The notes: a model not told the origin generated them from the sequence alone. A stretch of 64,000 nt of DNA from a virus (IMGVR_UViG_3300036785_000296:1-64000); one strand, 5' to 3'. Positions 8,662 to 63,043 are shown, counted from the first letter of the stretch. Translations and numbers: made by a program.

Positions 8662-10170
8662 TCAGGCCGCCAACTTATACCAGACGCCGAGATCAGTGCC
8701 GACGTGGCCGTTGGCCAGCACCAGCGCGTCCCAGTCGTCGGGGCTTTCCCGGCCGCGCTTCTTGAGATCGGCCTTCGCCTCGATCTGGATTTGGCCCCGG
8801 CTGGTGAAGAAGTACTTGATGTCGCCTGCCTCTGCGGCGAGGTCGTCGTCGCCTGGATCGATGTCGATGTCGCCGTCGATGAAGCGCTGGCGCATCCCCC
8901 AGTTCAGCTCGGCGCGCAGGTTCAGGTAGCGCTCGGTCTGCTGGAAGCGCGGATCGTCCGGATCGAGGATCACGGTCGGCTGCTCGCCCACGTTCACCGG
9001 CACGATCTCGACATGCCGCAGCAGCTTGTAGGCATCCTTGCCCGCCTCGCTGTCGTCCAGGCCGTTCTGCAACTCCTTCAGCCGGTCGGTGACGCCGCCG
9101 CCAATGCCGGTGTCATCGACCTTGACCTTCGTCGCGCCGGTCTCGCGGATCGCCACGATCACCCGGCCGGTGGTCTGCATGGTGTCTTCCTTGCCCGAGC
9201 GGAAGACCCTGCGGAACCACGCACCGCGCCGCACGTAGGCGACGCTGTGATCGTCGCCGAAGCGCGCCACGTCCACGCCAAGCTCGCACTCGGTCGGATG
9301 CGGCGTGATCTCGCGGAGCTGCGCGGCGCTGATCGCGCTCAGCGGCACCAAGCCGTCCGTCGCCTGCTCGGGGAACTGGCCCAGCACCTTCGAGCGATAG
9401 ATCGGGCTGTCCTCGCCCCACTTCTTCTTGCGCTCCTCGACCCAGATCGGCGAGACCAGCAGCGGACGCAGGAAGTCGGGCACCTCCTCGCCGGTGAAGT
9501 TCGGGCTCTCGAAGGCGTTCATCTTGATGACGTGCCAGCCCGAGCCCGGCTTGCAGACGTCGTGGAACTCGGTCGAGGGATCGTCCGGATTGCCGATGGC
9601 GAACATCCGCGAGTACTCGTTCGCCGCCATCGATGAGACCGCGTCCCACAGGCCTTTGGCAATGCCGCCCGCCTCGTCCAAGATCACCAGCACATACTTC
9701 TGGTGCAGCCCCTGGATCGAGGTCGGCGCGGTGTCTGAGGGCGAGCGGCCGAACGCCACAAGCTCTTGGTTCTCCAGCTTCCACTCGGTCTGGAGCATGC
9801 GCCCGATCAGGTTGCCCTGCCGATGGATGCGGTTCAGCTCGCGCCAGAGCAGCGCCCTCACCTGGGGCGCGGTCGGCGCCAGGGTCACCACGAAGGCCTC
9901 CCCAGGCTCGTGGCAGGCGATCCACCACGCCGTCAGGATCGCCGCCATGTAGGTCTTGCCCACGTCGTGGCAGCTCTGCACCGCCACCTGACGATTGTCG
10001 CGCACCGCCTCGGCCATCGTCTTCTGCGCCGACCAGAGGAAGCCGTAGAGGTGCTCGAACACGAAGCCGACCGGGTCGTGCTGATAGACCAGCAGCTTAG
10101 AGGTCTTCTCCCTCCGCCTCCGGTCCTGCTCCGCCCTCGCCGCCGCCAGCACTGCCTGCGCGCGCTGCAA
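8662..10170 (-). CDS. terL: Terminase large subunit
   Basis: Walker A SCHDVGKT, Walker B VILDEA, GNP motif, nuclease GVDVARFGDD and SPDDWDAL; start uncertain (TTG 10170 or ATG 10248). Confidence 0.95.
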   Translation of the reverse strand: MQRAQAVLAAARAEQDRRRREKTSKLLVYQHDPVGFVFEHLYGFLWSAQKTMAEAVRDNRQVAVQSCHDVGKTYMAAILTAWWIACHEPGEAFVVTLAPTAPQVRALLWRELNRIHRQGNLIGRMLQTEWKLENQELVAFGRSPSDTAPTSIQGLHQKYVLVILDEAGGIAKGLWDAVSSMAANEYSRMFAIGNPDDPSTEFHDVCKPGSGWHVIKMNAFESPNFTGEEVPDFLRPLLVSPIWVEERKKKWGEDSPIYRSKVLGQFPEQATDGLVPLSAISAAQLREITPHPTECELGVDVARFGDDHSVAYVRRGAWFRRVFRSGKEDTMQTTGRVIVAIRETGATKVKVDDTGIGGGVTDRLKELQNGLDDSEAGKDAYKLLRHVEIVPVNVGEQPTVILDPDDPRFQQTERYLNLRAELNWGMRQRFIDGDIDIDPGDDDLAAEAGDIKYFFTSRGQIQIEAKADLKKRGRESPDDWDALVLANGHVGTDLGVWYKLAA

Positions 10171-10642
10171 AGTCAGCGAGCCGGTCGATGAAGTTGGATA
10201 GCTGAGCGTCACTGAGGCTCTCGAACCGAAGCGGGATGGCGCCGCCATCTTCGCCCGTGTGCCGCTGCGTTGTCACCCTCCCGAAGCGCTTCGGCTGCTT
10301 GTGCGCCGTCGTCCACTTGATCGCGTCGATGGCCACCCGCGCCGCGTTGGCGTCGATCTTCCCCTGCGAGGTCAGGTAGGTGATGCGCTCGGCTTTCTCG
10401 GCATCGCTGAGCGCGCTGTACTCCTTCGCGCGCAGGTACATGTCCGCGAACTCAGGGTGCGCGTCCATCCACTGGTAGACGGTGGACCGCCCCGGCATGT
10501 CGTCGTCATCGTTGCAGATCGTCCAGAGGTCTCTGCCCTGACGCAGGCGGCTGCACAGCTCTTCGGCTAGCTCTGGGGTGTAGGTGGTGGGCGCCCCTGG
10601 CCTACGCTTCTCGGCGAACGGATCGAACGGCTTCTTGGCCAT
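10097..10642 (-). CDS. terS: Terminase small subunit
   Basis: PTTYTPELAEELCSRL...MPGRSTVYQW HTH (P22/Sf6-like); directly upstream of terL. Confidence 0.9.
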   Translation of the reverse strand: MAKKPFDPFAEKRRPGAPTTYTPELAEELCSRLRQGRDLWTICNDDDDMPGRSTVYQWMDAHPEFADMYLRAKEYSALSDAEKAERITYLTSQGKIDANAARVAIDAIKWTTAHKQPKRFGRVTTQRHTGEDGGAIPLRFESLSDAQLSNFIDRLADFAARAGSAGGGEGGAGPEAEGEDL

Positions 10643-13869: not shown

Positions 13870-14142
13870 TGGTGTCACGTTGGTCTCGTCGCTGTCACAG
13901 GCGATATCAACTAGGCGGTGCCGGGGTCGGTTCAGGACCCCGCCCGCCGCTCAACTTCCCCCCGAAACAGCAGCTCGCGCAAGCCCCCTTGCGATCACGA
14001 TTTGCGACAACAGGCTGAGCCGCCGTGCGCGCGCCAGGAGCCTTGCTGCGCAGCACGGGTACGAGGACACCAGCGCCCCGCCCCTCGTAGATTGGTCTAA
14101 TACCTACTTGATATCAAACCGTGTCGCTGCCATATGTGATTT

Positions 14143-14562
14143 ATGTCAGACGAACACACCTACGAACACAATCGCGTGTGCGCCCAGTGCGGCAAGCCGA
14201 TCCCCGACGAGCGCGCCAAGCGCGTCCTCTACTGCGACAAGGTCTGCAAGCGGGCCTTCCACAACGTCAGCCAGTGTCGCGGCCAGGAGATCATGGCGTT
14301 CCTCGAAGCGCAGCGCAGGCACTGCCGCGCCAAGTCGGGCAAGAACTCGGAGCACTACGAAATCCAGAAGTTCGCGCGCCAGCAAGTTGCCGAGCTTCTC
14401 GCCGACTACCTGCGGGCGGACAAGCTCAGCGGCCGGGACGCCAGCCTGATCGTGAGGGCGCGGATGGAAGAGGGCGTGCTGGTCATGGACAAGCGCCGCC
14501 GCCAGGATCGGCCGCAGCTCAGCTCGAAGCCCTGGTTCATGGAGAAGGAGCAGAGCGCATGA
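14143..14562 (+). CDS. Zn-finger hypothetical protein
   Basis: CAQC...YCDKVC; possibly leaderless. Confidence 0.7.
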   Translation: MSDEHTYEHNRVCAQCGKPIPDERAKRVLYCDKVCKRAFHNVSQCRGQEIMAFLEAQRRHCRAKSGKNSEHYEIQKFARQQVAELLADYLRADKLSGRDASLIVRARMEEGVLVMDKRRRQDRPQLSSKPWFMEKEQSA

Positions 14563-17946: not shown

Positions 17947-18033
17947 GTCGCTCTCCGGGTTTGGCCCCCGCGCAATGTCGCGCCGCAGCCGGGCGCCGTC
18001 CACGCATCAAGGGCACGGCTCCACAGTTTATTT

Positions 18034-18074
18034 TGATATCGTCATTGACAGAAGTGATGTCACAAACCTATGTG
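18034..18074 (+). promoter_or_regulatory. sigma70 promoter with upstream GATATC
   Basis: TTGACA 18045-18050, TATGTG 18069-18074, GATATC 18035-18040. Confidence 0.6.
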
Positions 18075-24793: not shown

Positions 24794-24981
24794 TCCTGCG
24801 GACGTGCGGCGACTGCCGCCACCTCGACCCGGCCACGGTCCCCACCCAGTCGGCCCGCAAGGTTCGGTACTGCACCAAGCGCTGCACCTGGGAGTACGAG
24901 GCGACGCCGCGCGGCGAGTTCGAGAGCGAGTGGTGGTGCTCCTTCTGGGAAGCCATTGCGCCCGGCCGCGTGAGTGCATAG
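24790..24981 (+). CDS. Small Cys-rich protein
   Basis: CGDCRH...C...C. Confidence 0.55.
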   Translation: MILRTCGDCRHLDPATVPTQSARKVRYCTKRCTWEYEATPRGEFESEWWCSFWEAIAPGRVSA

Positions 24982-25022
24982 ATATCTTGTGAAGGTCCGG
25001 ATGGACCGCAGAGATATCCAAC

Positions 25023-26297
25023 ATGATGAAGCAAGTTGACGGCAACGCCCTGCGGGACTGGGTGCAAGTCGCCCCGGAGCAGGAAGGCGACGAGCCCCAC
25101 TACGTCCGCGCCGAGCGCGATGAGCCGGTCGAGGCCCACCTTCAGGTGCGGCCCCAGTTCGTCGGCGACCTCCTGAAGCGGGTCGCGAAGTTCCAGAAGA
25201 TCGCCGCCCGGCACGGCCAGGAGGTCAGCGCCAGGAAGATCGGCGAGGTCATGGCGCCTCACCCGGTCTTCGGCAAGAAGCGCCCCCAGCGGCGCGAGGT
25301 CTGGGCGGTGGTGGTCCCCCCGATGGTCGGGGTGAAGGGCCGGATCGTGGGCCACTTCGAGCAGGCCGAGGACCGCAAGAGCCAGTACGTCCACGTCTTC
25401 CACGAGGCCGAGCGGGCCGCCTGCGAGGCGCTCCTGCCCCGCGCTGGCCAGTGCGACCACTGCCACAAGCAGCGGGCGCGGGTGAAGTCCTTCGTGGTCG
25501 AGCATGAGGGCGAGGTCAAGCTGGTCGGCTCGAACTGCCTGATGGACTTCCTGGGCGTCGATCCCGGCTGGGCCCTGGCGGCGGCCGAGTGGTTCGAGGC
25601 GGCCGAGCGCAGCGAGAGCGAGGGCGGCTGGGGCGGCGGCGGCCACTACCGTGACCTGATGTCCCTAGTGGACGGCGCCTACAAGGTTGCCAAGAAGCAC
25701 GGCGGCTACCCCCAAGGCGACGACCGCTACTGGTTCCGGAACCACGCCCAGATCGTGGCCTTCGGCCCCAAGAGCGCCTCCGACCGGGAGGTCGCCAAGG
25801 AGTACGCCGGGTTCAAGCCCGAGCCCATCGACCTCCAGGCCCTCGCCGACTACGTCGAGCAGGCCTCCGGCGACTTCGGCGCCAACCTGCGGATCGCGAT
25901 GGAGCAGGACATGATCCACGCCAAGCGCTCGGCGCTGGTGATCGCCGGGGTGGCCATGTGGGTCGGCCGCTCCCTGAAGCGGAAGGACGAAGAGGTCAAG
26001 GCCGCCAAGCTACCCGCGCCCAAGGCCTTCGCCGAGAAGGTCGGGAGCCGGATCGACTTCGAGGCCGAGGTGGTCCGCGCGATCCCCCGGCAGGGCGACT
26101 TCGGGATGAGCCTGATCATCGCCCTGCGCTGCGCGGACGGTCGGCAGGCGGTGAACTTCCACTCCGGCTCGTTCCGCCCCGAGGCTGGCAAGCGCTACAA
26201 GGTGCGGGCGAGCATCAAGCGGCACCAGCCCGCCTTCAAGGGCTTCGGCGAGGAGAGCGTGCTGAGCCGGGCGGTCTACGAGGAGATCAAGGCATGA
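25023..26297 (+). CDS. Conserved phage protein with Zn motif and C-terminal OB-fold-like region
   Basis: CDHC...VGSNCLMDFLG; long ORF with strong codon bias. Confidence 0.8.
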   Translation: MMKQVDGNALRDWVQVAPEQEGDEPHYVRAERDEPVEAHLQVRPQFVGDLLKRVAKFQKIAARHGQEVSARKIGEVMAPHPVFGKKRPQRREVWAVVVPPMVGVKGRIVGHFEQAEDRKSQYVHVFHEAERAACEALLPRAGQCDHCHKQRARVKSFVVEHEGEVKLVGSNCLMDFLGVDPGWALAAAEWFEAAERSESEGGWGGGGHYRDLMSLVDGAYKVAKKHGGYPQGDDRYWFRNHAQIVAFGPKSASDREVAKEYAGFKPEPIDLQALADYVEQASGDFGANLRIAMEQDMIHAKRSALVIAGVAMWVGRSLKRKDEEVKAAKLPAPKAFAEKVGSRIDFEAEVVRAIPRQGDFGMSLIIALRCADGRQAVNFHSGSFRPEAGKRYKVRASIKRHQPAFKGFGEESVLSRAVYEEIKA

Positions 26298-43737: not shown

Positions 43738-45321
43738 CTACGGGTTGACAGTGACTGCTATGTTCGCCGTGTGGACCGCCCCGGCCGTCTTCGCCGCCAC
43801 CTGATAGGGCACGCTCTTTCGCGCCGCCCGGTCGGCCTGCGCTTGGCTGATGATCGGCGGCGTGTAGACGTAGTAGCCCTTCGACAGGTAGCTGCCGTTG
43901 GTGATCTGGCCGAACCCGCCAGCGTTCCACTGCCCAGGCCCGATGTAGCCGTTGGTCACGTACTGCGCGCAGGCCGCCTCGATGGCGTTGGCGCCCTGGT
44001 GGTTGCCGCCGTCCGTCTGCGGCAGCTTCGGCACGCCCGCCAGGAGGTTGAAGTAGTCCACCTGAATGGAGTTGCAGAGCCCGTCCGCGCCGAAAATCTC
44101 GTCAACGAAGATTTCGTTCGCGCCGCTGCCGGGCGTGATCGAGGTGCAGATCATGCAGCCGTTCACCACCACCGGCACGCCGTTGTTGAACACCGCGTAG
44201 TAGTTGTAGCCCGAGGCATCGAGCGCGTTCGCCTGGGTCGCGGTGAGCTGCTCGGGCGTGATCCCCGGCTCCTGCTTGTAGGCCGCCGTGATCATCGTGT
44301 TCGCGCCGCGCAGGTTCACCGTCGCGAAGAGCGCGATCAGCGAGCACGCCGCGAAGCTGCACGCCGCCCAGGCGCTGCCGAAGGTGCTGGAGAAGTTCGG
44401 CGGGTTGCTCGACCACTGCACGAAGGTGCGCTGGTAGCCCGAGTTGTGCAGCACGGTCCCCACGTCGGTGCCGACCGCCGCGTTGAGCGCGTTCGGGTCG
44501 TTCGTGGTCAGGCCGTAGATGTGCGGCGCGGCGGTCTGGGTGGCCGCCTCGATGTACGCCGCGATGGCCTCGACGTCGGCGACCGCGAGGTGCGGGCAGG
44601 CGTCGGTGTTCAGCGCGTACCAGTAGGTCGCCTGCTGGTCGCAGGCCTGCACCGCCTGGAGCGCCGTCTCGGCCGCGATGCCGCTGATCGACTGGCCGCC
44701 GCTCGCGGCATTGGTATTCAGCAACGGGCCGAGGTCCGTGCCAGCGGTCGGCGCCGTGGTGACCGACATCGAGGAGGCGGGCCCGCTGGTGCCCGACTTC
44801 AGCACGAACTGCTGGCCGTTCCACGTACACGTCGAGCCCGCGAGCCCGCTCTGCATCGCGGCCTGGATCAGGGCGGCGACCGCATTGAGGTTCGCCGCCG
44901 TCGCGAGGTTGACCCCGGTCACGTTGACCGCCGCGCCGCCGTTCATGGCGACGTGGAAGCCGCCGTTCACGACGCCGGTGAAGTTGCTCATCGCCTGCTC
45001 GGCGCTCGTCAGCGGGGCGCCGAGGCAGCGCCCGGCGCTCGCCTGCTGGGCCCAGCGGCCGATGTAGAGCAGGTTCGGCTGCGGCAACTGGGAGAAGAAC
45101 GCCTGCGCGGCGAGGTACTCGGGCGGCCATGCGCCGCCGACCTGGGGGAACGCCTGGGCGACCGCGCTCAGCGAGTTGAACGACATGATCCGGCTGACGG
45201 GATCGATCACGGTGCTTTCGCCAAGGATCAGCGTCGAGTTGAGGTTGGCGAAGCCCGCCAGGGCGGCGGAAAGGCTCAGACTGACGTTGATCAGCCGGGA
45301 GGTGGACAGACCCTGCGGCAT
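43738..45321 (-). CDS. Tail sheath protein (DUF3383)
   Basis: PEYLAA..FFSQ.PQP..LYIGRW; PQTDGG; KGYY; RAARKS. Confidence 0.92.
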   Translation of the reverse strand: MPQGLSTSRLINVSLSLSAALAGFANLNSTLILGESTVIDPVSRIMSFNSLSAVAQAFPQVGGAWPPEYLAAQAFFSQLPQPNLLYIGRWAQQASAGRCLGAPLTSAEQAMSNFTGVVNGGFHVAMNGGAAVNVTGVNLATAANLNAVAALIQAAMQSGLAGSTCTWNGQQFVLKSGTSGPASSMSVTTAPTAGTDLGPLLNTNAASGGQSISGIAAETALQAVQACDQQATYWYALNTDACPHLAVADVEAIAAYIEAATQTAAPHIYGLTTNDPNALNAAVGTDVGTVLHNSGYQRTFVQWSSNPPNFSSTFGSAWAACSFAACSLIALFATVNLRGANTMITAAYKQEPGITPEQLTATQANALDASGYNYYAVFNNGVPVVVNGCMICTSITPGSGANEIFVDEIFGADGLCNSIQVDYFNLLAGVPKLPQTDGGNHQGANAIEAACAQYVTNGYIGPGQWNAGGFGQITNGSYLSKGYYVYTPPIISQAQADRAARKSVPYQVAAKTAGAVHTANIAVTVNP

Positions 45322-54629: not shown

Positions 54630-56204
54630 TTACGTGTCCTCGAAGACCGGCACCCCGTCGTCGTCCAGCAGCGGGATCGCCTCGTCATCGAGGATGCCGC
54701 CGACCACGGCGTGGCGATGCACGACGCGCGCCGTCATGCCCAGCACCTGGGCGTAGGCCAGCGAGCCCATCACGATCTGCGCGTCGCGCGCCGCGCCCTG
54801 CTCGATGACCGTCTCAGCGACGAGGCCGAAGGCGGCCGTGACGTCCTGCGCCGCGCCCTGCTCGGCGACGCTCTCTCCCCTGCTGACGCCGCCCGAGGGC
54901 GTGTCGAACGCCCTGCCCGCCTCGTAGATCGCAGGCCGGGTGACCGAGGAGACGACGCTCGGAGTGTCGAGGGCCGCGCCGCTCTCGGCGACGGCGAGCG
55001 GCAAGAGCCCGGCGCTGGTCACCACGTCGGCCGCCGCCCCAGCCTCGCTCACCAGCGTCAGGGAGGTCTCGACCACGCCGACGTGGGCGATGGTCAGCGG
55101 GTTGCCTGGGCCGGGCCCCGTGAGCACCCGGTAGTTGGCGGTGTCGGTCGACGTCAGCACGTCTTGGTTCGTCGCATCGGCGAACCAGCCGGTGAGCCCC
55201 GCGCCGATGGTGGCGCTCTGGTTGCCCGCCACGCCATTCTTGCGCGTCGTCAGCGTCCCCGGCCCCGTCATGGCGTTGGCGGTGACGTTGACCTTCAGGC
55301 CCGACATCGCGACGGGAAAGCCGTGCGGCGTGGCCGCCGCCGCGTCGCTCCCCAGGCCCACGCCGAGGGTGCCGCCCACCAGCGGGTAGTAGGCGGTGAA
55401 GTTCGCGCCCATCCCGCTGGCCGGGTAGCAGAAGAGGTCGTTGACCGGGGCGCTCGGGTTGACGAAGCCGATGGCGGCGCAACTTTGGCTGACCACGCCG
55501 CCGCCGGCTAGCATCGTCGCGCAGAAGAGGTCGCCGACGTTGACCGTCGTCTGGGTGGTGGTGTCTTGGAAGACGCCCGTGAGCCCAGGCCCGATGGTCG
55601 GTCCTTGGGCGCCGAGCGCCCCGTTCAGATAGAGGGTGAACTTCTGGGCCGAGGTCATCGCGTTGGCGGTGATGTTGACGCTCAGACCCTGAAGCAGCCC
55701 GGCCACGCCAACTTGCTGCTGCACGGTGGCGGTCACCGTGTTCAGCACCTGTCCGAGGCTACCGACGGGGTTGAAGTACTGACGGTTGTTGGCGCTGATC
55801 GTGTTCGTGGTGCTGCCGGTCGGGCTGGCTGCGTAGATCGCCGCGTGCGGGCTTGAGCCCAGGCGCATCTGTAGACGCGAGACGGTCGCGGCAGCGGCTG
55901 CGGTCCAGGCCAGATCGATCAGGTCGCCCTGCGCCACCACGTCGCCCGCGCCCGACGTCAGCGCCGTGTCGCTGATGCTCTGGTTGGCGTTGGCGCCGTT
56001 CTGGCGGAGCTGCCCGGTGAACGTCCCGGCCACCGTCAGCGCCGTCAGCCCCAGGAGCGTGCCCGCGACCGGCATCCTAAGCTGCGCCGCCGCCTCGGTG
56101 GCCTGCTTCGTGTAGGTCGTATTGCCGCCCAGGACGCCACTGAAGGTCCCGGCGGCCTGCGCCACAGCGCCTAGAGAGGCGGTCCCGAAGAGGGAATAGC
56201 CCAT
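54630..56204 (-). CDS. Putative virion fibre protein with internal repeats
   Basis: Three repeated beta modules plus five ExGxAxD repeats. Confidence 0.7.
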   Translation of the reverse strand: MGYSLFGTASLGAVAQAAGTFSGVLGGNTTYTKQATEAAAQLRMPVAGTLLGLTALTVAGTFTGQLRQNGANANQSISDTALTSGAGDVVAQGDLIDLAWTAAAAATVSRLQMRLGSSPHAAIYAASPTGSTTNTISANNRQYFNPVGSLGQVLNTVTATVQQQVGVAGLLQGLSVNITANAMTSAQKFTLYLNGALGAQGPTIGPGLTGVFQDTTTQTTVNVGDLFCATMLAGGGVVSQSCAAIGFVNPSAPVNDLFCYPASGMGANFTAYYPLVGGTLGVGLGSDAAAATPHGFPVAMSGLKVNVTANAMTGPGTLTTRKNGVAGNQSATIGAGLTGWFADATNQDVLTSTDTANYRVLTGPGPGNPLTIAHVGVVETSLTLVSEAGAAADVVTSAGLLPLAVAESGAALDTPSVVSSVTRPAIYEAGRAFDTPSGGVSRGESVAEQGAAQDVTAAFGLVAETVIEQGAARDAQIVMGSLAYAQVLGMTARVVHRHAVVGGILDDEAIPLLDDDGVPVFEDT

Positions 56205-57813: not shown

Positions 57814-58234
57814 CGGCGAACCTCCTGACGGGCACGGGCATCACCTGGGTCGGCTCATCGGTGTAGGCGCGCACGATGAACATCCCCTCCCAGCGCACGA
57901 CGCCGTTGTCATCGCCGGTGGTGATGTCGCGCAAGCTGAAGTAGGGGCCGACCTTCGGGTTGCCGCTCATGTCGACCAGCGCCACGTCGCTCTGGGTGAG
58001 CGTCAGCATCTGCTGGTCGGGGTGACCGAGGATCGGCTTCAGCAGCGTCTGGAAGGCGCCGTCGACCTCGAACTCGTAGACGCTCTGGCTGACGTCGAGC
58101 GGGTTGCCCGCGCCGTCCTGAAAGGCGATGGCGAGCGGCGCCGCCGTCCGACCGTGGAGGCGCAGATTGCCGCAGCCGTCGATCCAGGCGGGCTGATAGA
58201 CGACGACCTGGGCCGGAGGAGGGGTCGTGGCCAT
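57800..58234 (-). CDS. Hypothetical (virion-associated?) protein
   Basis: First gene of the structural run; GAGGAG RBS. Confidence 0.7.
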   Translation of the reverse strand: MATTPPPAQVVVYQPAWIDGCGNLRLHGRTAAPLAIAFQDGAGNPLDVSQSVYEFEVDGAFQTLLKPILGHPDQQMLTLTQSDVALVDMSGNPKVGPYFSLRDITTGDDNGVVRWEGMFIVRAYTDEPTQVMPVPVRRFAVVGR

Positions 58235-58286
58235 GCCCGGCTCCTCTACCCTAAGAGCGCCTCCCGCGCGAGGGTCCGCCGCGAGC

Positions 58287-58382
58287 TGATATCAGTGGGC
58301 CCTTGAAATGTCTGGTCGCGATACCTATATGTGGTAGGTGAGGCGCGGCCGGAGTGGTCGCGACGAAGGCCCCGGAGGAGCC
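58287..58382 (+). promoter_or_regulatory. Repeated promoter/leader element, copy 1
   Basis: TGATATCA, TTGAAA-N17-TATATG, GGA-loop hairpins. Confidence 0.7.
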
Positions 58383-59255
58383 ATGAACATAGGTCCCGTC
58401 ATCCGCCCGAAGACCGGGCACAACCGCTACTGCGGGCCGGCGGCGCTCAGCGCCATCTGCCGCATCGACACCGCCAAGGCGGCGGAGGTGCTGCGCGAGG
58501 TCACCGGCAAGAAGTCGATCAAGGGCGTCTGGGAGGCCCAGATGGTCCGCGCCCTGATGAAGCTCGGATACCGGGCGCTTCAGATGCCGACCCCCAAGGA
58601 GCAGTCCCTGGCGGCGTGGCTGAAGACCAGCAACCTGAAGGTCCGTGGAGCCAAGGTCTACCTCGTCGCCGCCGGCAACCACTTCGTCACCATCCAAGGG
58701 CGACGCGGCGTCTGCACGCTCTCCGATGGCGAGGTGGTGGCGCTCAGCAAGCTCAAGAGGCGCCGGGCCAACGTTCGGTCGGTCTTCGTGATCAGCAAGA
58801 AGACAGCGCCGCCGCCCGTGCAGCGGGTGCCCGGCGTCAAGCCGAAGGTCCCCGCCAAGCTCCTGCCGCTGAAGACCGTGGCTGCGGCCGAAGCGTCCCT
58901 GGCCAAGGCCAAGATCGCCGCCGACGCCGCCCTGGCGAAGCTGCGCGCGGAGGAGCTGCGGCTCGCCGCCACCAAGCGGTGGGTCGCCGAGCAGAAGGTC
59001 CGCGACGAGAAGAACGCGGAGGCGCGAGCCCGGCGGAAGGCCAAGCTGCTGGCCGCCGAGCACGGCATCGAGATCGAGATCGACCAGATCGAGCCGGGCT
59101 ACCGCCACTACTGGGTCACCGGGCCGGAGGCGATCTACCCCGGCGACGAGGGCGATCCCTGGAAGGGCGACCATATCGGCCACGGCTGGGAGGAGGTGCT
59201 CGACCGGGTCGAGGTCTACGTCGAGGACATCAAGAAGCGGAAGGAGGTGGCGTGA
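58383..59255 (+). CDS. Protein with C39/papain-like N-terminal motif and coiled coil
   Basis: YCGPAALSAI...GNHFVTI. Confidence 0.7.
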   Translation: MNIGPVIRPKTGHNRYCGPAALSAICRIDTAKAAEVLREVTGKKSIKGVWEAQMVRALMKLGYRALQMPTPKEQSLAAWLKTSNLKVRGAKVYLVAAGNHFVTIQGRRGVCTLSDGEVVALSKLKRRRANVRSVFVISKKTAPPPVQRVPGVKPKVPAKLLPLKTVAAAEASLAKAKIAADAALAKLRAEELRLAATKRWVAEQKVRDEKNAEARARRKAKLLAAEHGIEIEIDQIEPGYRHYWVTGPEAIYPGDEGDPWKGDHIGHGWEEVLDRVEVYVEDIKKRKEVA

Positions 59256-60412
59256 TGTCCGAGACCTACGTCAAGACCTTCAAGCCGAGCCCGCGCGGCC
59301 CCAAGCTCCGCTTCGCCGACGAGACCCTGGCCGAGCGCTTCCGCGACCCGAAGAAGGACGGTGAGGTCTGGCTGGCCCGCGAGCTTGGCCAGCACGCCCC
59401 CGACAACTCGGTGGTGCGCCGCATCCTGCTCGACGCCAAGCGCTACGTCATGGACGACGACGCGCTGAAGCTGGCAGTCGATCTCTCGGAGAGCTGGCCG
59501 CGCCAAGTCCTGCATCAGCTCGACGCCATCGAGATGCCAGCAAAGGAAGGGGTGTGGATCGAGTTCAGCTCGCAGACCCTGACACGGCAGCGGCTGAAGT
59601 ATGGGACCCTGGAAGACGCGCCCGCTGATCGCCCGCCCACGGCGCGCTGCGGGATGCTGATCAAGGACCGGGGCGACGGGCTGATCCAGACGTGGTGCAT
59701 CGAGGACGGCGACCCCGACGAGTTCGGCCAGCGCGAGGGCCTGATCGTCGCGTGGCCGATGAGCTACTGCATCAGCCTCAACGGCCCGCGCGAGGCCCAT
59801 CGCGGCCAACGCGGGCAACCGGGGTGGACCGCGCTCTGCTGGGGCTACGGCTCACAGGTGGAAGACCTCGCACTGCTCGACGGGCGCGCGTGGCCGACGA
59901 TGGACCCGAGCTTCATGAAGCTCTTCGCGCAGCAGCAGGGCGTGGGCAAGCTCATGCACGAGCTGCGCGGCTGGACCCGGCTCACCGTCGCGATGCTGGC
60001 GCTGCTCTCGACCGTCGCCTCCATCGTGGAGGTGCCGCGCCCTGCCGGCCACGCGCGGATCGGCGGCCTGATGCGGCCCCGGCTGAAGAGCGACCGGCTG
60101 GTGATCTACGTCCCCCGCACGATCCGCAAGCCGGTCCCGTGGGCGCGGAAGATCATCCACCAGAGCGCCCAGCACCGGCGCCGCCTGCACGAGGTCTCCA
60201 AGCACTGGCGCCACCTCGACCATCTGCCGAAGGCCCCAGGCTGGGAGCCGGTCCTCATCGGCAACAAGTGGATGTGGCGCAAGGAGATCGCGTTCCACCT
60301 CCGGGGCGACCCGGACCTGGGGGTGGTCGAGCACCGCGAGACGTTCGTCAAACTGAACAAGCGATACCGTCAGATCACGGAGGAGACCCATCATGGCGAC
60401 AACGACACGTAA
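59255..60412 (+). CDS. Conserved phage hypothetical protein
   Basis: WIEF; RLHEVSKHWR...HLRGDPDLG. Confidence 0.8.
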   Translation: MSETYVKTFKPSPRGPKLRFADETLAERFRDPKKDGEVWLARELGQHAPDNSVVRRILLDAKRYVMDDDALKLAVDLSESWPRQVLHQLDAIEMPAKEGVWIEFSSQTLTRQRLKYGTLEDAPADRPPTARCGMLIKDRGDGLIQTWCIEDGDPDEFGQREGLIVAWPMSYCISLNGPREAHRGQRGQPGWTALCWGYGSQVEDLALLDGRAWPTMDPSFMKLFAQQQGVGKLMHELRGWTRLTVAMLALLSTVASIVEVPRPAGHARIGGLMRPRLKSDRLVIYVPRTIRKPVPWARKIIHQSAQHRRRLHEVSKHWRHLDHLPKAPGWEPVLIGNKWMWRKEIAFHLRGDPDLGVVEHRETFVKLNKRYRQITEETHHGDNDT

Positions 60413-60635
60413 GCGATACTGGATGAGCGCGGTGGACGAGTTCGACTCGTTCGGGCGGCTGATCGTCGGCGAGTTCATCGACGGGCGGATCGGCCCGCAG
60501 TGCGGGAACACGCTGGCCTGGGCGATCTTCACGCCCGACTCGTGGAAGCACTTCGGCTTTGGCAGGCTGGGCACTGGCTACGGCCAGCGCTACGTGAAGC
60601 AGCCGGACGGCCGGTGGCTGAAAGTCGACGGATAG
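60393..60635 (+). CDS. Hypothetical protein
   Basis: FIDG...WA....LG.G.GQRY; GGAGGAG RBS. Confidence 0.7.
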   Translation: MATTTRKRYWMSAVDEFDSFGRLIVGEFIDGRIGPQCGNTLAWAIFTPDSWKHFGFGRLGTGYGQRYVKQPDGRWLKVDG

Positions 60636-60639
60636 GATC

Positions 60640-60807
60640 ATGACCGACGCACAGCTCGCAGCAGCGGCGACGATCCAGGCGATTGCCGAGGAGTTCAGCG
60701 AGACCGAGAAGCGCTGGAGCCCAACCGATCTGCGCCGCCAGGGCAGGCGGCTGCTCGAAGCGCTCGAAGCCATCGTGCCGAAGGAAACGATATCTCCCCT
60801 TGAATAG
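60640..60807 (+). CDS. Hypothetical protein (55 aa)
   Basis: Hand translation MTDAQLAAAATIQAIAEEF... Confidence 0.5.
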   Translation: MTDAQLAAAATIQAIAEEFSETEKRWSPTDLRRQGRRLLEALEAIVPKETISPLE

Positions 60808-60879
60808 GAAGGGTAGAATAGATATCTAAGACGTGCGGCCGGAGAGGTCGCGCGAGAGAGGTCTGGAGGACCGAACAGC
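60789..60879 (+). promoter_or_regulatory. Repeated promoter/leader element, copy 2
   Basis: GATATC, TTGAAT-N17-TATCTA, GGA-loop hairpins. Confidence 0.7.
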
Positions 60880-61239
60880 ATGAAGAACCTGAACGCCTAC
60901 AAGGCGATCCTCGCCGAAGCCGAAGCCGCCGCCGTCGAGGCGATCAAGGCCAACGCCGGACGCGAGAACCGCTTCGCCTTCGACTGCGGCTTCGCCTGGG
61001 CCGTGATCGAGGACGGTAGGTCCGATCTCTACAAGGCGGCCAAGCAGGCCAAGTCCGGCGAGCCCGGCTACGGCCACAAGAACTACGGCGCGCCCGGCTG
61101 GCAAGTCTGGATGCCCGGCCGCCACGGCTCCGGCTTCAACGGCCAGAGCGTCGGCATCTTCGAGGCGGGGGCCCGCGCCTTCGCGGAGGTGCTGAAGAAG
61201 CACGGCTTCGCCGCCCACTGGTCGAGCCGTCTGGACTGA
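60880..61239 (+). CDS. Conserved phage early protein
   Basis: CGFAW...QS...EAGARAFA.VL..HG....SRLD. Confidence 0.8.
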   Translation: MKNLNAYKAILAEAEAAAVEAIKANAGRENRFAFDCGFAWAVIEDGRSDLYKAAKQAKSGEPGYGHKNYGAPGWQVWMPGRHGSGFNGQSVGIFEAGARAFAEVLKKHGFAAHWSSRLD

Positions 61240-61253
61240 CCCCGGAGAGAACC

Positions 61254-61589
61254 ATGATCATCGTCCAAGTCCACCACAACCAGACCGGCAGCGCGCTCTA
61301 CGAGCACGTCGCCAACGTCAGCTACCAGGGCGAGGATGTCGAGCACGCGCTCGACTACGCCTGGGAGCGCACCCAAAACATCGACGGCTCTTGGTCGCGC
61401 GGGATCACCTACCCGGACGGTCAGCGCAACGCGGACTACTCCGCGCACATCGAGCGCCTCGCTCCGCTGCCGGTCTACGACGGCAAGACCTTCGGCCTGC
61501 GCTCCTCGATGGTCGGCGACCGCTTCGTGATCGAGGGCGTCGGCGCCTGGAAGGTCGCCGGCTGCGGCTTCGAGAAGGAGGCCGCATGA
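61254..61589 (+). CDS. YodL-like domain protein
   Basis: RSSMVGD.FVI....W.V...GF. Confidence 0.6.
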   Translation: MIIVQVHHNQTGSALYEHVANVSYQGEDVEHALDYAWERTQNIDGSWSRGITYPDGQRNADYSAHIERLAPLPVYDGKTFGLRSSMVGDRFVIEGVGAWKVAGCGFEKEAA

Positions 61590-61792
61590 GCGCGAGCAAG
61601 ACCGAGCAGCGCGTGCTGCGGAACGTGATCCGCAAGCTCGGGCCAGACGCCCAGGTCAGCGGCGAGGGGCGCGAGCACCTGAAGGCGCTCCGCATCTACC
61701 TCGACACCTGGGTGATCGCGCCGCTCGAACTGCTGGCCAAGGAGGATCGGACTTCCTGGGACCTCCGCCACGCCGACGATCTCGCCCGATGA
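61586..61792 (+). CDS. Hypothetical protein
   Basis: ATGA-coupled, AAGGAGG RBS. Confidence 0.6.
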   Translation: MSASKTEQRVLRNVIRKLGPDAQVSGEGREHLKALRIYLDTWVIAPLELLAKEDRTSWDLRHADDLAR

Positions 61793-61992
61793 GCCGCGAG
61801 ATCGACCGCCTGAAGTGCAAGGCCAGGAAGCTGTACCGCCGGATGATGCGCGAACTCGACACCGTGGACTGCGGCATCTCGATGCTCAGCTTCATCCGCC
61901 CCAGCTTCGGCCGCCTCGTCGCCGAGTACGACGCCACCATCGCCCGCCTGCGCGAGATCGATCCCAGCTTCCCCAAGGAGAAATCCCGATGA
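61789..61992 (+). CDS. Hypothetical protein
   Basis: ATGA-coupled. Confidence 0.6.
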   Translation: MSREIDRLKCKARKLYRRMMRELDTVDCGISMLSFIRPSFGRLVAEYDATIARLREIDPSFPKEKSR

Positions 61993-62141
61993 TCACCCAA
62001 GCCCAGCGCGACCGGGCCTACCACGTCCTGATGGCAGCTCTCGCCGAGGAGGCCGCAGTCCGCGAGCTGCCCGACGCCGAGCTGACCGAGAAGTCCAACG
62101 CCATCTGGGACGACTGCTACGGCGACAAGGAGACCCCATGA
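61989..62141 (+). CDS. Hypothetical protein
   Basis: ATGA-coupled, AAGGAG RBS. Confidence 0.55.
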   Translation: MITQAQRDRAYHVLMAALAEEAAVRELPDAELTEKSNAIWDDCYGDKETP

Positions 62142-62359
62142 CCGCACCGACCCACGTCCAGGGCCACGCGGTGACCGCCGCCGAGCCCGCCCTGCGCGGC
62201 GGCTACATCCTGCTGGTTGACCAGGGACCGGGGCGTCAGCTCCGCTGGGTCACCGGCTGGCTGGCCACCGGCGAGACCGTCCCGGCCTACCGCAACTACT
62301 TCCACGCCGAGGGCGCAGCCCGGCTGGATTTCACGCAGCGCTGCGAGAGAGGATGCTGA
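62138..62359 (+). CDS. Hypothetical protein
   Basis: ATGA-coupled. Confidence 0.6.
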   Translation: MTAPTHVQGHAVTAAEPALRGGYILLVDQGPGRQLRWVTGWLATGETVPAYRNYFHAEGAARLDFTQRCERGC

Positions 62360-62363
62360 CCCC

Positions 62364-62564
62364 ATGAACGACACCTTCGACCTTCACTTCTCGACCGAGA
62401 ACGCGGCCTTCGAGGACGCGCCGCTGACCGAAGTGGCGCGCATCCTGCGGAACCTCGCCGACCGCGTCGAGCGCATCACCGGCGGCTATCCGGCCGGCAC
62501 GGTTGTCGATGTGAACGGCAATACCATCGGCCACTGGTCCCACAACGCCAGCGGCAGGGCCTGA
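62364..62564 (+). CDS. Conserved small phage protein
   Basis: NAAF....EVARILR.LA...D.NGN.IG. Confidence 0.7.
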   Translation: MNDTFDLHFSTENAAFEDAPLTEVARILRNLADRVERITGGYPAGTVVDVNGNTIGHWSHNASGRA

Positions 62565-62654
62565 TATCAAACCCTTGCATTTTGGCCAGGGAATACATAT
62601 CTAAGTGATGCGGCCGGAAGCGCCGCGAGAGATGAGCCTGGAGGGCTCAAGACC
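62562..62654 (+). promoter_or_regulatory. Repeated promoter/leader element, copy 3
   Basis: TGATATCA, TTGCAT-N17-TATCTA, GGA-loop hairpins. Confidence 0.7.
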
Positions 62655-62849
62655 ATGACACTCTCGGAAGCCGTCGAACTGCGGGACTTCATCGCGGCCC
62701 TAGGCGGCTGCGAGCACGCCGCCGTCAAGCGACACCGCGCCGGCTACAAGCTGGTCGTCCGCTTGGTCGGCGAGCCGCCCCGCAGCTACGTCAACCACGA
62801 CCGCGCCTTCAACCACTACTGCGCCTCGCTGGACGAGGAAGACGCATGA
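62655..62849 (+). CDS. Hypothetical protein
   Basis: First gene after leader element. Confidence 0.6.
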   Translation: MTLSEAVELRDFIAALGGCEHAAVKRHRAGYKLVVRLVGEPPRSYVNHDRAFNHYCASLDEEDA

Positions 62850-63043
62850 GCCACCTCCCCTTCCACTACGTGAGCCCGGCGGGCAACGAGGTCTGGAGCC
62901 GCGAGCCGATGAGCCCGGCCGACCTGATCGAGCATGACGCGATGATCGCGGCGATGCCCGACGAGCCCGAGCCCGACTACGACGAAGACCCCGACGCTGA
63001 CGGCTACGGCTGGGAGCGCAAAGCCCTGAGAGGGATCGAATGA
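62846..63043 (+). CDS. Small acidic hypothetical protein
   Basis: ATGA-coupled. Confidence 0.6.
   Translation: MSHLPFHYVSPAGNEVWSREPMSPADLIEHDAMIAAMPDEPEPDYDEDPDADGYGWERKALRGIE

Follow-up and report, generated by a model that had tools for sequence, protein, structure and literature searches.

A repeated promoter and two-hairpin leader cassette ahead of small-gene blocks in a soil phage genome

A regulatory cassette of ~95 bp was found repeated on the + strand of a phage genome from soil metagenomes (IMG/VR record IMGVR_UViG_3300036785_000296). The stretch analysed, referred to as the window, comprised bases 1–64000 of this 74,004-bp record, which has a 126-bp end overlap. Each cassette joined a sigma-70-like promoter to a leader with two potential hairpins, the second of which covered the Shine–Dalgarno (SD) sequence of the following gene. 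The closest described kind of element is the promoter early stem-loop (PeSL) of T4-like phages. Tentatively, and at just short of an even chance, the repeat was interpreted as a PeSL-like early expression cassette, in which hairpin 1 would stabilize the 5′ terminus of the mRNA and hairpin 2 would tune translation through the SD.

Four copies, P1 to P4, were present in the genome and spanned 91–99 bp (P4, 91 bp; P3, 96 bp). P1, P2, and P3 aligned over ~95 nt in the window, and the complete fourth copy, P4, was located just beyond it. The order of the parts was the same in each copy: GATATC, 5–9 nt, TTGMAW, a spacer of 16 or 17 nt, (C/A)TAT(A/C)T, hairpin 1, a purine-rich linker, hairpin 2 with the SD, and ATG. 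All copies were on the + strand, each headed a block of ORFan genes, and the upstream genes had their stop codons inside P2, P3, and P4. An intergenic repeat of ~100 bp with a sigma-70-like promoter, bounded by a stop codon and an SD/ATG, is the layout of a PeSL. A sequence-only reading of this DNA had described three cassettes of promoter, hairpin 1, and hairpin 2; these were present in the sequence, both hairpins appeared in the minimum free energy (MFE) folds of the leaders, and the copies formed a strand-specific family that couples a promoter to a leader ahead of blocks of small ORFan genes.

The repeat was not a chance occurrence. The pattern TTGMAW-N17-TATMT matched three times in the window against 0.02 expected, and GATATC occurred 16 times against 4.85 ± 2.3 expected. 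The bare 9-mer GCGGCCGGA was not rare in GC-rich DNA (8 versus 4.1 expected), and the significance of the cassette therefore resided in the combination and position of its parts, not in the hairpin sequence alone. The P1 promoter matched the sigma-70 consensus of Sinorhizobium meliloti, CTTGAC-N17-CTATAT (PMC2873474), at 11 of 12 positions, although this consensus may not be that of the phage host. A generic Escherichia coli-style promoter scan did not find the cassette promoters, because their -10 hexamers, in any frame and at a spacing of 16–18 nt, lacked the required A2 and T6.

Orthologous cassettes were obtained from three IMG/VR contigs of one soil sample. L123 and L124 carried P1, and L126 carried P2, P3, P4, and an extra cassette, Px. 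The comparison set was thus composed of ten cassette copies, nine of them distinct, from about six lineages. Since MAFFT on the full leaders did not keep the two hairpins in register together, hairpin 1 (alignment A5) and hairpin 2 (alignment A6) were aligned separately.

Hairpin 1 had the consensus GCGGCC-loop-GGYCGC and was present in the MFE fold of every leader. Its core GCGGCC was located exactly 7 nt past the -10 hexamer in seven of the ten copies (P2, P3, P4, Px, and their orthologs), and this 7-nt discriminator was constant in length with five distinct sequences across the seven copies. The spacers from GATATC to -35 (5–9 nt), the hairpin-1 loop, the linker, and the distance from SD to ATG were variable. 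From the constant 7 nt and usual promoter geometry, the transcription start site (TSS) was predicted to be 0–2 nt before GCGGCC in P2, P3, P4, and Px, so that the mRNA would start with hairpin 1.

In A5, 90% of the cells were paired in register, compared with 28–50% when the 3′ partners were slid. Four of the eight pairs were invariant, one pair appeared as G-C, G-U, or A-U, and the shuffle control was not significant; the stem was a conserved sequence with weak covariation. All non-Watson–Crick pairs were G-U on the sense (+) strand. Where G-U occurred the antisense folds were far weaker than the sense folds (for example, sense -17.1 versus antisense -7.8, and -15.3 versus -5.5 kcal/mol). A U-G pair followed by a G-C pair lengthened the stem in three lineages, and in L126 P2 a C inserted in the 5′ arm had its counterpart in a G inserted in the 3′ arm. 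The loop between the six-base cores was 4, 5, or 7 nt long, giving totals of 16, 17, and 19 bp. Because G-U pairs were confined to the + strand, the C/G insertion was compensated, and the loop length varied, a sense-strand RNA hairpin is favoured over a double-stranded DNA palindrome. The loop opened with GG in all copies and continued with A in nine of ten, the exception being GGUGU in L126 P2; the statement of the sequence-only reading that GGA loops are kept held to that extent.

A covariance model of hairpin 1, R1, recovered all ten copies with scores of 24.9–35.7 bits. This was the scan that the sequence-only reading had proposed, and over the 74-kb genome it gave no further copies and one weak match elsewhere (20.9 bits). 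The extra match, at 28682–28707 (-), was rejected since it was antisense within a signal-peptide coding region. At 28671–28710 a + strand gene started with a signal-peptide-like N-terminus (MNKLLATTAVALLLGGPVLAQQ), and the match was a palindrome of this coding sequence. The same reading had counted a partial fourth copy at 24994–25007. This sequence, GGTCC-GGAT-GGACC, is not a member of the family: it was found between the GATATC sites at 24981 and 25013 (24981..25018, +; ATG at 25023), within a promoter-like spacer and before any transcript start, and R1 did not list it at E ≤ 10. Rfam gave no match at the gathering score over the whole genome; for 58200–62800 it gave two chance-level matches (E 1.6 and 4.1), neither on a leader.

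Covariation was clearer in hairpin 2. In A6, four of the seven pairs changed on both sides (G-C, A-U, C-G, and U-A), whereas the claim that stems vary while pairing is kept applied only weakly to hairpin 1. The covariation score of hairpin 2 was 0.316 against a shuffled mean of 0.208; it was reached by 7 of 500 shuffles and was above all slid controls, despite two rows of A6 being out of register through loop insertions. In the MFE folds the loop was GGA (GGAG or GGAAA in orthologs) and the following SD bases were paired, which is modelled as a half-sequestered SD. Hairpin 2 had been said to display the SD; the SD was indeed there, but only its GGA was in the triloop, and the remainder (GG) was paired. 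A hairpin with a GGA loop at the SD was found at 7 of 115 gene starts genome-wide, P2 and P3 among them. Hairpin 2 was weak in P1, which has a C-A mismatch, and the arrangement differed in Px, where the start codon was inside a possible hairpin, GGACCC-CGGAGAU-GGGUCU. Px, a fifth cassette type, was on the minus strand of L126 (locus ~10400–10570) with the hairpin-1 loop GGAUG, within a block of genes, 2.4 kb long, that the window lacks.

Table 1. Cassettes, their predicted elements, and two further genes (window positions; P4 in genome positions)
Feature	Position	Strand	Remarks
Cassette P1	58287-58385	+	
P1 upstream palindrome TGATATCA	58287..58294	.	holds GATATC; 9 nt before -35
P1 promoter CTTGAA-N17-CTATAT	58302..58330	+	
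P1 hairpin 1 CGCGGCC-GGAGT-GGTCGCG	58344..58362	+	7 bp, one G-U; R1 34.2 bits
P1 hairpin 2 GGCCC(C)-GGA-(G)GAGCC with SD	58368..58382	+	one C-A mismatch; ATG 58383
Cassette P2	60789-60882	+	
P2 upstream GATATC	60789..60794	.	within 3′ end of gene 60640-60807
P2 promoter CTTGAA-N17-ATATCT	60799..60827	+	spacer holds stop TAG of upstream gene
P2 hairpin 1 CGTGCGGCC-GGAGA-GGTCGCGCG	60832..60854	+	9 bp, two G-U; R1 33.7 bits
P2 hairpin 2 GGTCT-GGA-GGACC	60860..60872	+	half of SD in stem; ATG 60880
Cassette P3	62562-62657	+	
P3 upstream palindrome TGATATCA	62562..62569	.	its TGA is the stop of gene 62364-62564
P3 promoter CTTGCA-N17-ATATCT	62574..62602	+	
P3 hairpin 1 GCGGC(C)-GGAA-(G)C-GCCGC	62610..62626	+	GGAA tetraloop, bulged C in MFE fold; R1 33.5 bits
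P3 hairpin 2 TGAGCCT-GGA-GGGCTCA	62633..62649	+	7 bp; ATG 62655
Cassette P4	genome 64286-64376	+	complete fourth copy, just beyond window; 91 bp
Large terminase gene	8662-10248	-	
Tail sheath gene	43738-45321	-	

The ~95-bp units stand ahead of one block of small ORFan genes after another along the + strand, between 58.3 and ~67 kb, and the following mechanism is proposed for them. Host RNA polymerase of the sigma-70 type would initiate at TTGMAW-N16/17-(C/A)TAT(A/C)T, as judged from the sequence, and with initiation 0–2 nt before GCGGCC (P2, P3, P4, and Px) the mRNA would open with a GC-rich stem-loop of -10 to -20 kcal/mol. By ompA-type analogy, this 5′-terminal hairpin would shield the transcript from 5′-end-dependent decay (RppH, RNase E, and RNase J). 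Such decay and the protection given by 5′ stem-loops are established (reviewed in PMC3997798). In hairpin 2, ~24 nt downstream, the first GGA of the SD would be held in the loop and the next bases in the stem, which would set or gate translation of the first gene. The cassettes would also mark points of gene-block exchange among related phages, because they form conserved islands between fast-changing genes. The repeat and its non-randomness, its placement relative to the promoter, the sense-strand hairpin potential, the covariation of hairpin 2, and the junctions at cassette edges are observations; the TSS, the stabilization, the translational tuning, and the early timing are inferences.

Several observations weigh against this mechanism. 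The 5′ ends of the transcripts are placed by promoter geometry, and in P1 there were 11–14 nt between -10 and hairpin 1, which predicts a single-stranded 5′ tail. Hairpin 2 of P4 was weak, and its hairpin 1 was absent from the MFE fold of a longer, 64-nt context. The folding energies of the leaders were no better than those of shuffles (z +1.2 to -1.5), a score that is uninformative at 68% GC. The sequence TGCGGCCGGA was identical in seven of the ten copies (six of the nine distinct ones), and the loop always opened with GG. Because a pure stabilizer requires no particular sequence, this identity hints at sequence-specific recognition or gene conversion. Furthermore, the comparative data all came from four closely related soil phage contigs, and the copies were not independent.

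Mosaic junctions in three relatives were found at cassette edges. Homology with L123 began at 56004 and ended at 58388, precisely at ATG+3 of the first gene, and resumed at 59293 after an unrelated gene. Homology with L126 ended ~20 nt past the P3 ATG and resumed at 62980; in between, L126 has a different set of genes spanning 2.4 kb, to which Px belongs, and it also has a 490-bp insert adjoining the 5′ edge of P4. Contigs from soil metagenomes were joined at 58330>59309, 60785>60900, and 62654>63047, and the comparison of four soil DNA runs gave junctions but no usable leader variants. On the left, the junctions coincided with P1 and P3 at their 3′ edges and with P4 at its 5′ edge, and the right junctions (59293 and 62980) were away from cassettes. 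In these alignments the cassettes are conserved islands that border exchanged blocks on the left. The mosaic junctions in relatives agreed with an earlier remark that the repeats may aid cassette shuffling; PeSL-type exchange from cassette to cassette was not demonstrated, because the right edges were not at cassettes.

Three other explanations were considered for the promoter-proximal repeat. The conserved inverted repeats of phiC31 and the lac-type operator are models for a DNA operator, in which a phage repressor would bind the near-palindrome GCGRCC-N4-7-GGYCGC, centred at about +11, and shut off early transcription. The place just past -10 is a classical operator location, the half-sites were conserved in sequence without covariation, and the palindromes were perfect in L123 P1, L126 P4, and L126 P2. 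However, the variable spacing of the half-sites (loops of 4, 5, and 7 nt) would shift the half-sites of a dimer out of phase, the stem extension through U-G and then G-C forms pairs only in the sense-strand RNA, and no helix-turn-helix-type regulator family was found among the scanned proteins, which were part of the gene set and gave only a weak, below-cut-off DksA/TraR-type zinc-finger hint; an operator is quite unlikely. The cassettes could also be recombination linkers only, kept alike by gene conversion as patches of homology for the exchange of gene blocks, with hairpins that have no RNA function of their own. The junctions at P1 ATG+3, ~20 nt past the P3 ATG, and at the 5′ edge of P4, the contig joints near cassettes, and the PeSL precedent (PMC2839356) are consistent with this. 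Selection alone, however, also predicts junctions at gene borders, the right-hand junctions were away from cassettes, and identical runs between paralogous copies reached at most ~12 nt, which is short for homologous exchange. The covariation of hairpin 2 and the fixed 7-nt spacing favour a function at the RNA level, and the linker is considered as improbable as the operator. An antitermination signal, in which two promoter-proximal hairpins would modify RNA polymerase for a 9-kb early unit in the manner of lambda nut (boxB) or HK022 put, is least to be expected. Two hairpins do lie directly past early promoters, and the GGAGA and GGAA loops could possibly take GNRA-like folds, but the loops GGAGU, GGAU, GGAUG, and GGUGU are not GNRA-like, and the second hairpin is the ribosome-binding site. 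In addition, no intrinsic terminators were found on the + strand of 57–67.5 kb, no boxA-like conserved element was visible in the alignment, and there was no Rfam match.

The remaining alternative is a regulon read through the GGA loops, which the sequence-only reading had proposed as an undescribed post-transcriptional system. T4 RegB targets GGAG in early SD sequences. The two hairpins would be a dual site for a dimeric GGA reader, or targets of a RegB-like nuclease, and would switch all early cassettes; this is unlikely, and its narrower form is a shade less likely again, that loops 23–24 nt apart constitute a dual site for a host CsrA/RsmA-like or an unrecognised early phage protein that switches the cassettes together. 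The GG was invariant, GGA was present in nine of ten hairpin-1 loops, and the GGA-to-GGA distance of 23–24 nt in P1–P3, with the downstream GGA on the SD, was inside the bridging range of CsrA (10–63 nt, with an optimum above 18 nt; PMC7652899). A GGA reader retains some probability mainly because the sequence of hairpin 1 is more conserved than a structural element needs. However, no match to CsrA, RegB, RegA, ProQ, or Hfq was found in the phage, including the csrA/regB-like gene whose search had been suggested, and the 20 early proteins scanned had no Pfam match above the cut-off. In the CsrA ligands obtained by SELEX, ACA was 100% conserved and most hairpins had at most 4 contiguous bp (PMC7652899), whereas ACA was absent from the cassettes (context GCC-GGA or YCU-GGA) and the stems were GC-rich and 5–9 bp long (hairpin 1, 6–9 bp). 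The L126 P2 loop was GGUGU, P3 and P4 had no GGAG in their hairpin-1 loops, P4 also had none in its SD, and the GGA of hairpin 2 is accounted for by the SD itself. No CsrA was found in the metagenome-assembled genome (MAG) that holds a related contig, a MAG that is incomplete and in which the binning of the contig is doubtful. In sum, no evidence was obtained for the proposed regulon.

The phage genome has a GC content of 68% and is that of a myovirus by gene content, with genes for tail sheath, large terminase, head protease, helicase, and exonuclease. The cassettes were located where a cluster of small + strand genes begins; this cluster (58.3 to ~67.35 kb) is divergent from the last - strand gene of the structural side, whose ATG is at 58234. 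A Pfam scan of 20 early-cluster proteins gave no match above the cut-off, and the proteins belonged in PHROGs to families of unknown function only. With the mosaic gene content relative to L123 and L126, these results place the cassettes among ORFans in a plastic region, as is characteristic of PeSLs.

No near-identical DNA was found among GenBank phages, and protein matches were distant only. A link to Alphaproteobacteria was weakly suggested by promoter resemblance and weak protein matches to Roseobacter and Caulobacter phages; the host was not established. A terminase gene 91% identical to window 8662–10248 was present on L205, a 12.8-kb contig binned in a Candidatus Dormiibacterota MAG. 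It was the single contig of this MAG that matched the phage, and with its doubtful binning it is unreliable as host evidence. Relatives sought through the large terminase were short fragments without the early region.

Beyond these relatives, searches for further cassettes yielded chance matches or distant homologs lacking the leader. Two scans of IMG/VR with loose DNA patterns returned 118 and 59 single matches; in the 59-match scan all those inspected except L126 were chance or coding matches without promoter context, and the single matches of the 118-match scan were judged to be chance or coding by extension from it. A stricter pattern returned only L126 and one coding match (L125). With the protein of the gene behind P2, a metagenome scan gave distant homologs only (30–41% identical), and an IMG/VR scan gave L126's own contig (89%) and distant homologs of 30–47%, which were often behind sigma-70-like promoters without comparable hairpins. 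Closer homologs (P0002, P0003, and P0007) were 74–81% identical, on contigs of 49–73 kb. Marine contigs of 37–42% GC (L131, L134, L137, L138, L140, and L143) carried distant homologs of this 119-amino-acid protein, whose genes likewise come first behind a strong sigma-70-like promoter (GGGTTGAAAT...), with short, AT-rich, hairpin-free leaders. An unrelated phage contig, L192 (IMGVR_UViG_3300001682_000665, minus strand, ~146–230), had a similar layout composed of a sigma-70-like promoter ending in ATATCT, the hairpin GCGACCC-GCAA-GGGGTCGC with a GNRA loop, an SD, and an ATG. A layout with a 5′-end hairpin after an early promoter may occur more widely.

Hairpin-free promoter-like sites were also marked by GATATC, frequently in the form of TGATATCA or of a longer palindrome (window 14105–14145, 18023–18042, and 24981–25018; genome 67097–67137). 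The genome site at 67100–67137 resembled that at 24981–25018 and had no hairpins. The GATATC pair at 24981 and 25013, and the GATATC at 67100 with its CATATC partner, were 32 bp apart, the same distance as in P2–P4. The GATATC sites may be a regulator binding site or an upstream promoter element. At window 14108–14145, TTGATA-N18-ATATGT ended 5 nt before the ATG at 14143; the mRNA of this gene may be leaderless, and its product had a weak, below-cut-off match to DksA/TraR-type zinc fingers. An AT-rich motif, (T)TGGTCTAATACC, recurred in or near genes at window ~14094, ~57050, and ~63935, and was also found in L123.

When the cassette was compared with known systems, a 5′-terminal stabilizer stem-loop, as in the 5′ untranslated regions of ompA and papA (PMC3997798), was the best-supported functional analogy for hairpin 1, with a stable stem-loop predicted 0–2 nt from the 5′ end in most copies. 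Unlike these stabilizers, the element of the cassette is repeated and conserved in sequence, its 5′ end is a prediction only, and P1 would have a longer 5′ tail. The dual-site targets of CsrA/RsmA (glgC and hcnA; PMC7652899) also have two sites with the downstream one over the SD, as well as GGA in hairpin loops, which the cassettes have in nine of ten copies of hairpin 1 and in hairpin 2 of P1–P3; they differ by their ACA or A(N)GGA context, which the cassettes lack, and the cassettes have long GC-rich stems, a GGA-less ortholog, and no phage CsrA. In common with the targets of T4 RegB, the early-type transcripts had GGAG in the SD of P1–P3 and, for P1 and P2, in the hairpin-1 loop as well. 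There was no regB homolog (no PF10715 match), however, and neither the hairpin-1 loop nor the SD of P4 had GGAG, nor did the hairpin-1 loop of P3. If dual GGA reading were nevertheless true, the cassettes would amount to a post-transcriptional regulon carried by the phage, with a cis code of its own, and the strict conservation of the hairpin-1 sequence leaves room for a specific reader.

The start-associated sequences (SAS) and extended SAS (ESAS) of Cluster K mycobacteriophages comprise an SD-containing 13-mer, GGGATAGGAGCCC, before start codons and, upstream of it, an inverted repeat that is imperfect (Pope et al. 2011, PMC3203893). They resemble the cassettes in being restricted to non-structural genes in one orientation, and in having an SD motif with self-complementary ends and an inverted repeat with a variable spacer; both lack an assigned function, and for each of the two a reader from the host or the phage has been put forward. 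The SAS motif GGGATAGGAGCCC had no matches here with up to two mismatches. The arms of ESAS are 17 bp, compared with 6–9 bp in the cassette, and there are 11–19 copies of SAS/ESAS per genome, compared with four. SAS/ESAS are not linked to promoters, whereas every cassette copy follows a promoter at a fixed distance.

PeSLs are cassettes of ~100 bp that combine a stop codon and an early promoter with a stem-loop and an SD/ATG; they border ORFans and bring about the shuffling of modules (Arbiol et al. 2010, PMC2839356; Comeau et al. 2014, PMC4122927). The present cassettes likewise start at the upstream stop codon and have a stem-loop with G-T pairs in an ORFan-rich region, and their edges match insertions, deletions, and replacements between close relatives. 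In a PeSL the stem-loop overlaps the promoter or sits inside it and ends transcription arriving from upstream, whereas hairpin 1 is past -10, in the cassette's own leader; it starts 7 nt (11–14 nt in P1) after -10 without a U-tract, and a second hairpin covers the SD. Furthermore, the 74-kb soil myovirus is not T4-like, and only left-hand junctions were at cassettes. Most work describing and testing repeats of promoter/stem-loop cassettes has concerned the PeSLs of T4-like coliphages, and the present arrangement, with a promoter, a hairpin at the predicted mRNA 5′ end, and an SD hairpin at a fixed distance from -10, constitutes a third layout. If hairpin 1 stabilizes the mRNA and hairpin 2 gates translation, a high-GC phage would have in the cassette a compact and portable unit for expressing genes that it has newly acquired; the cassette would also serve as a marker by which early genes and points of exchange could be located in phage genomes from metagenomes.

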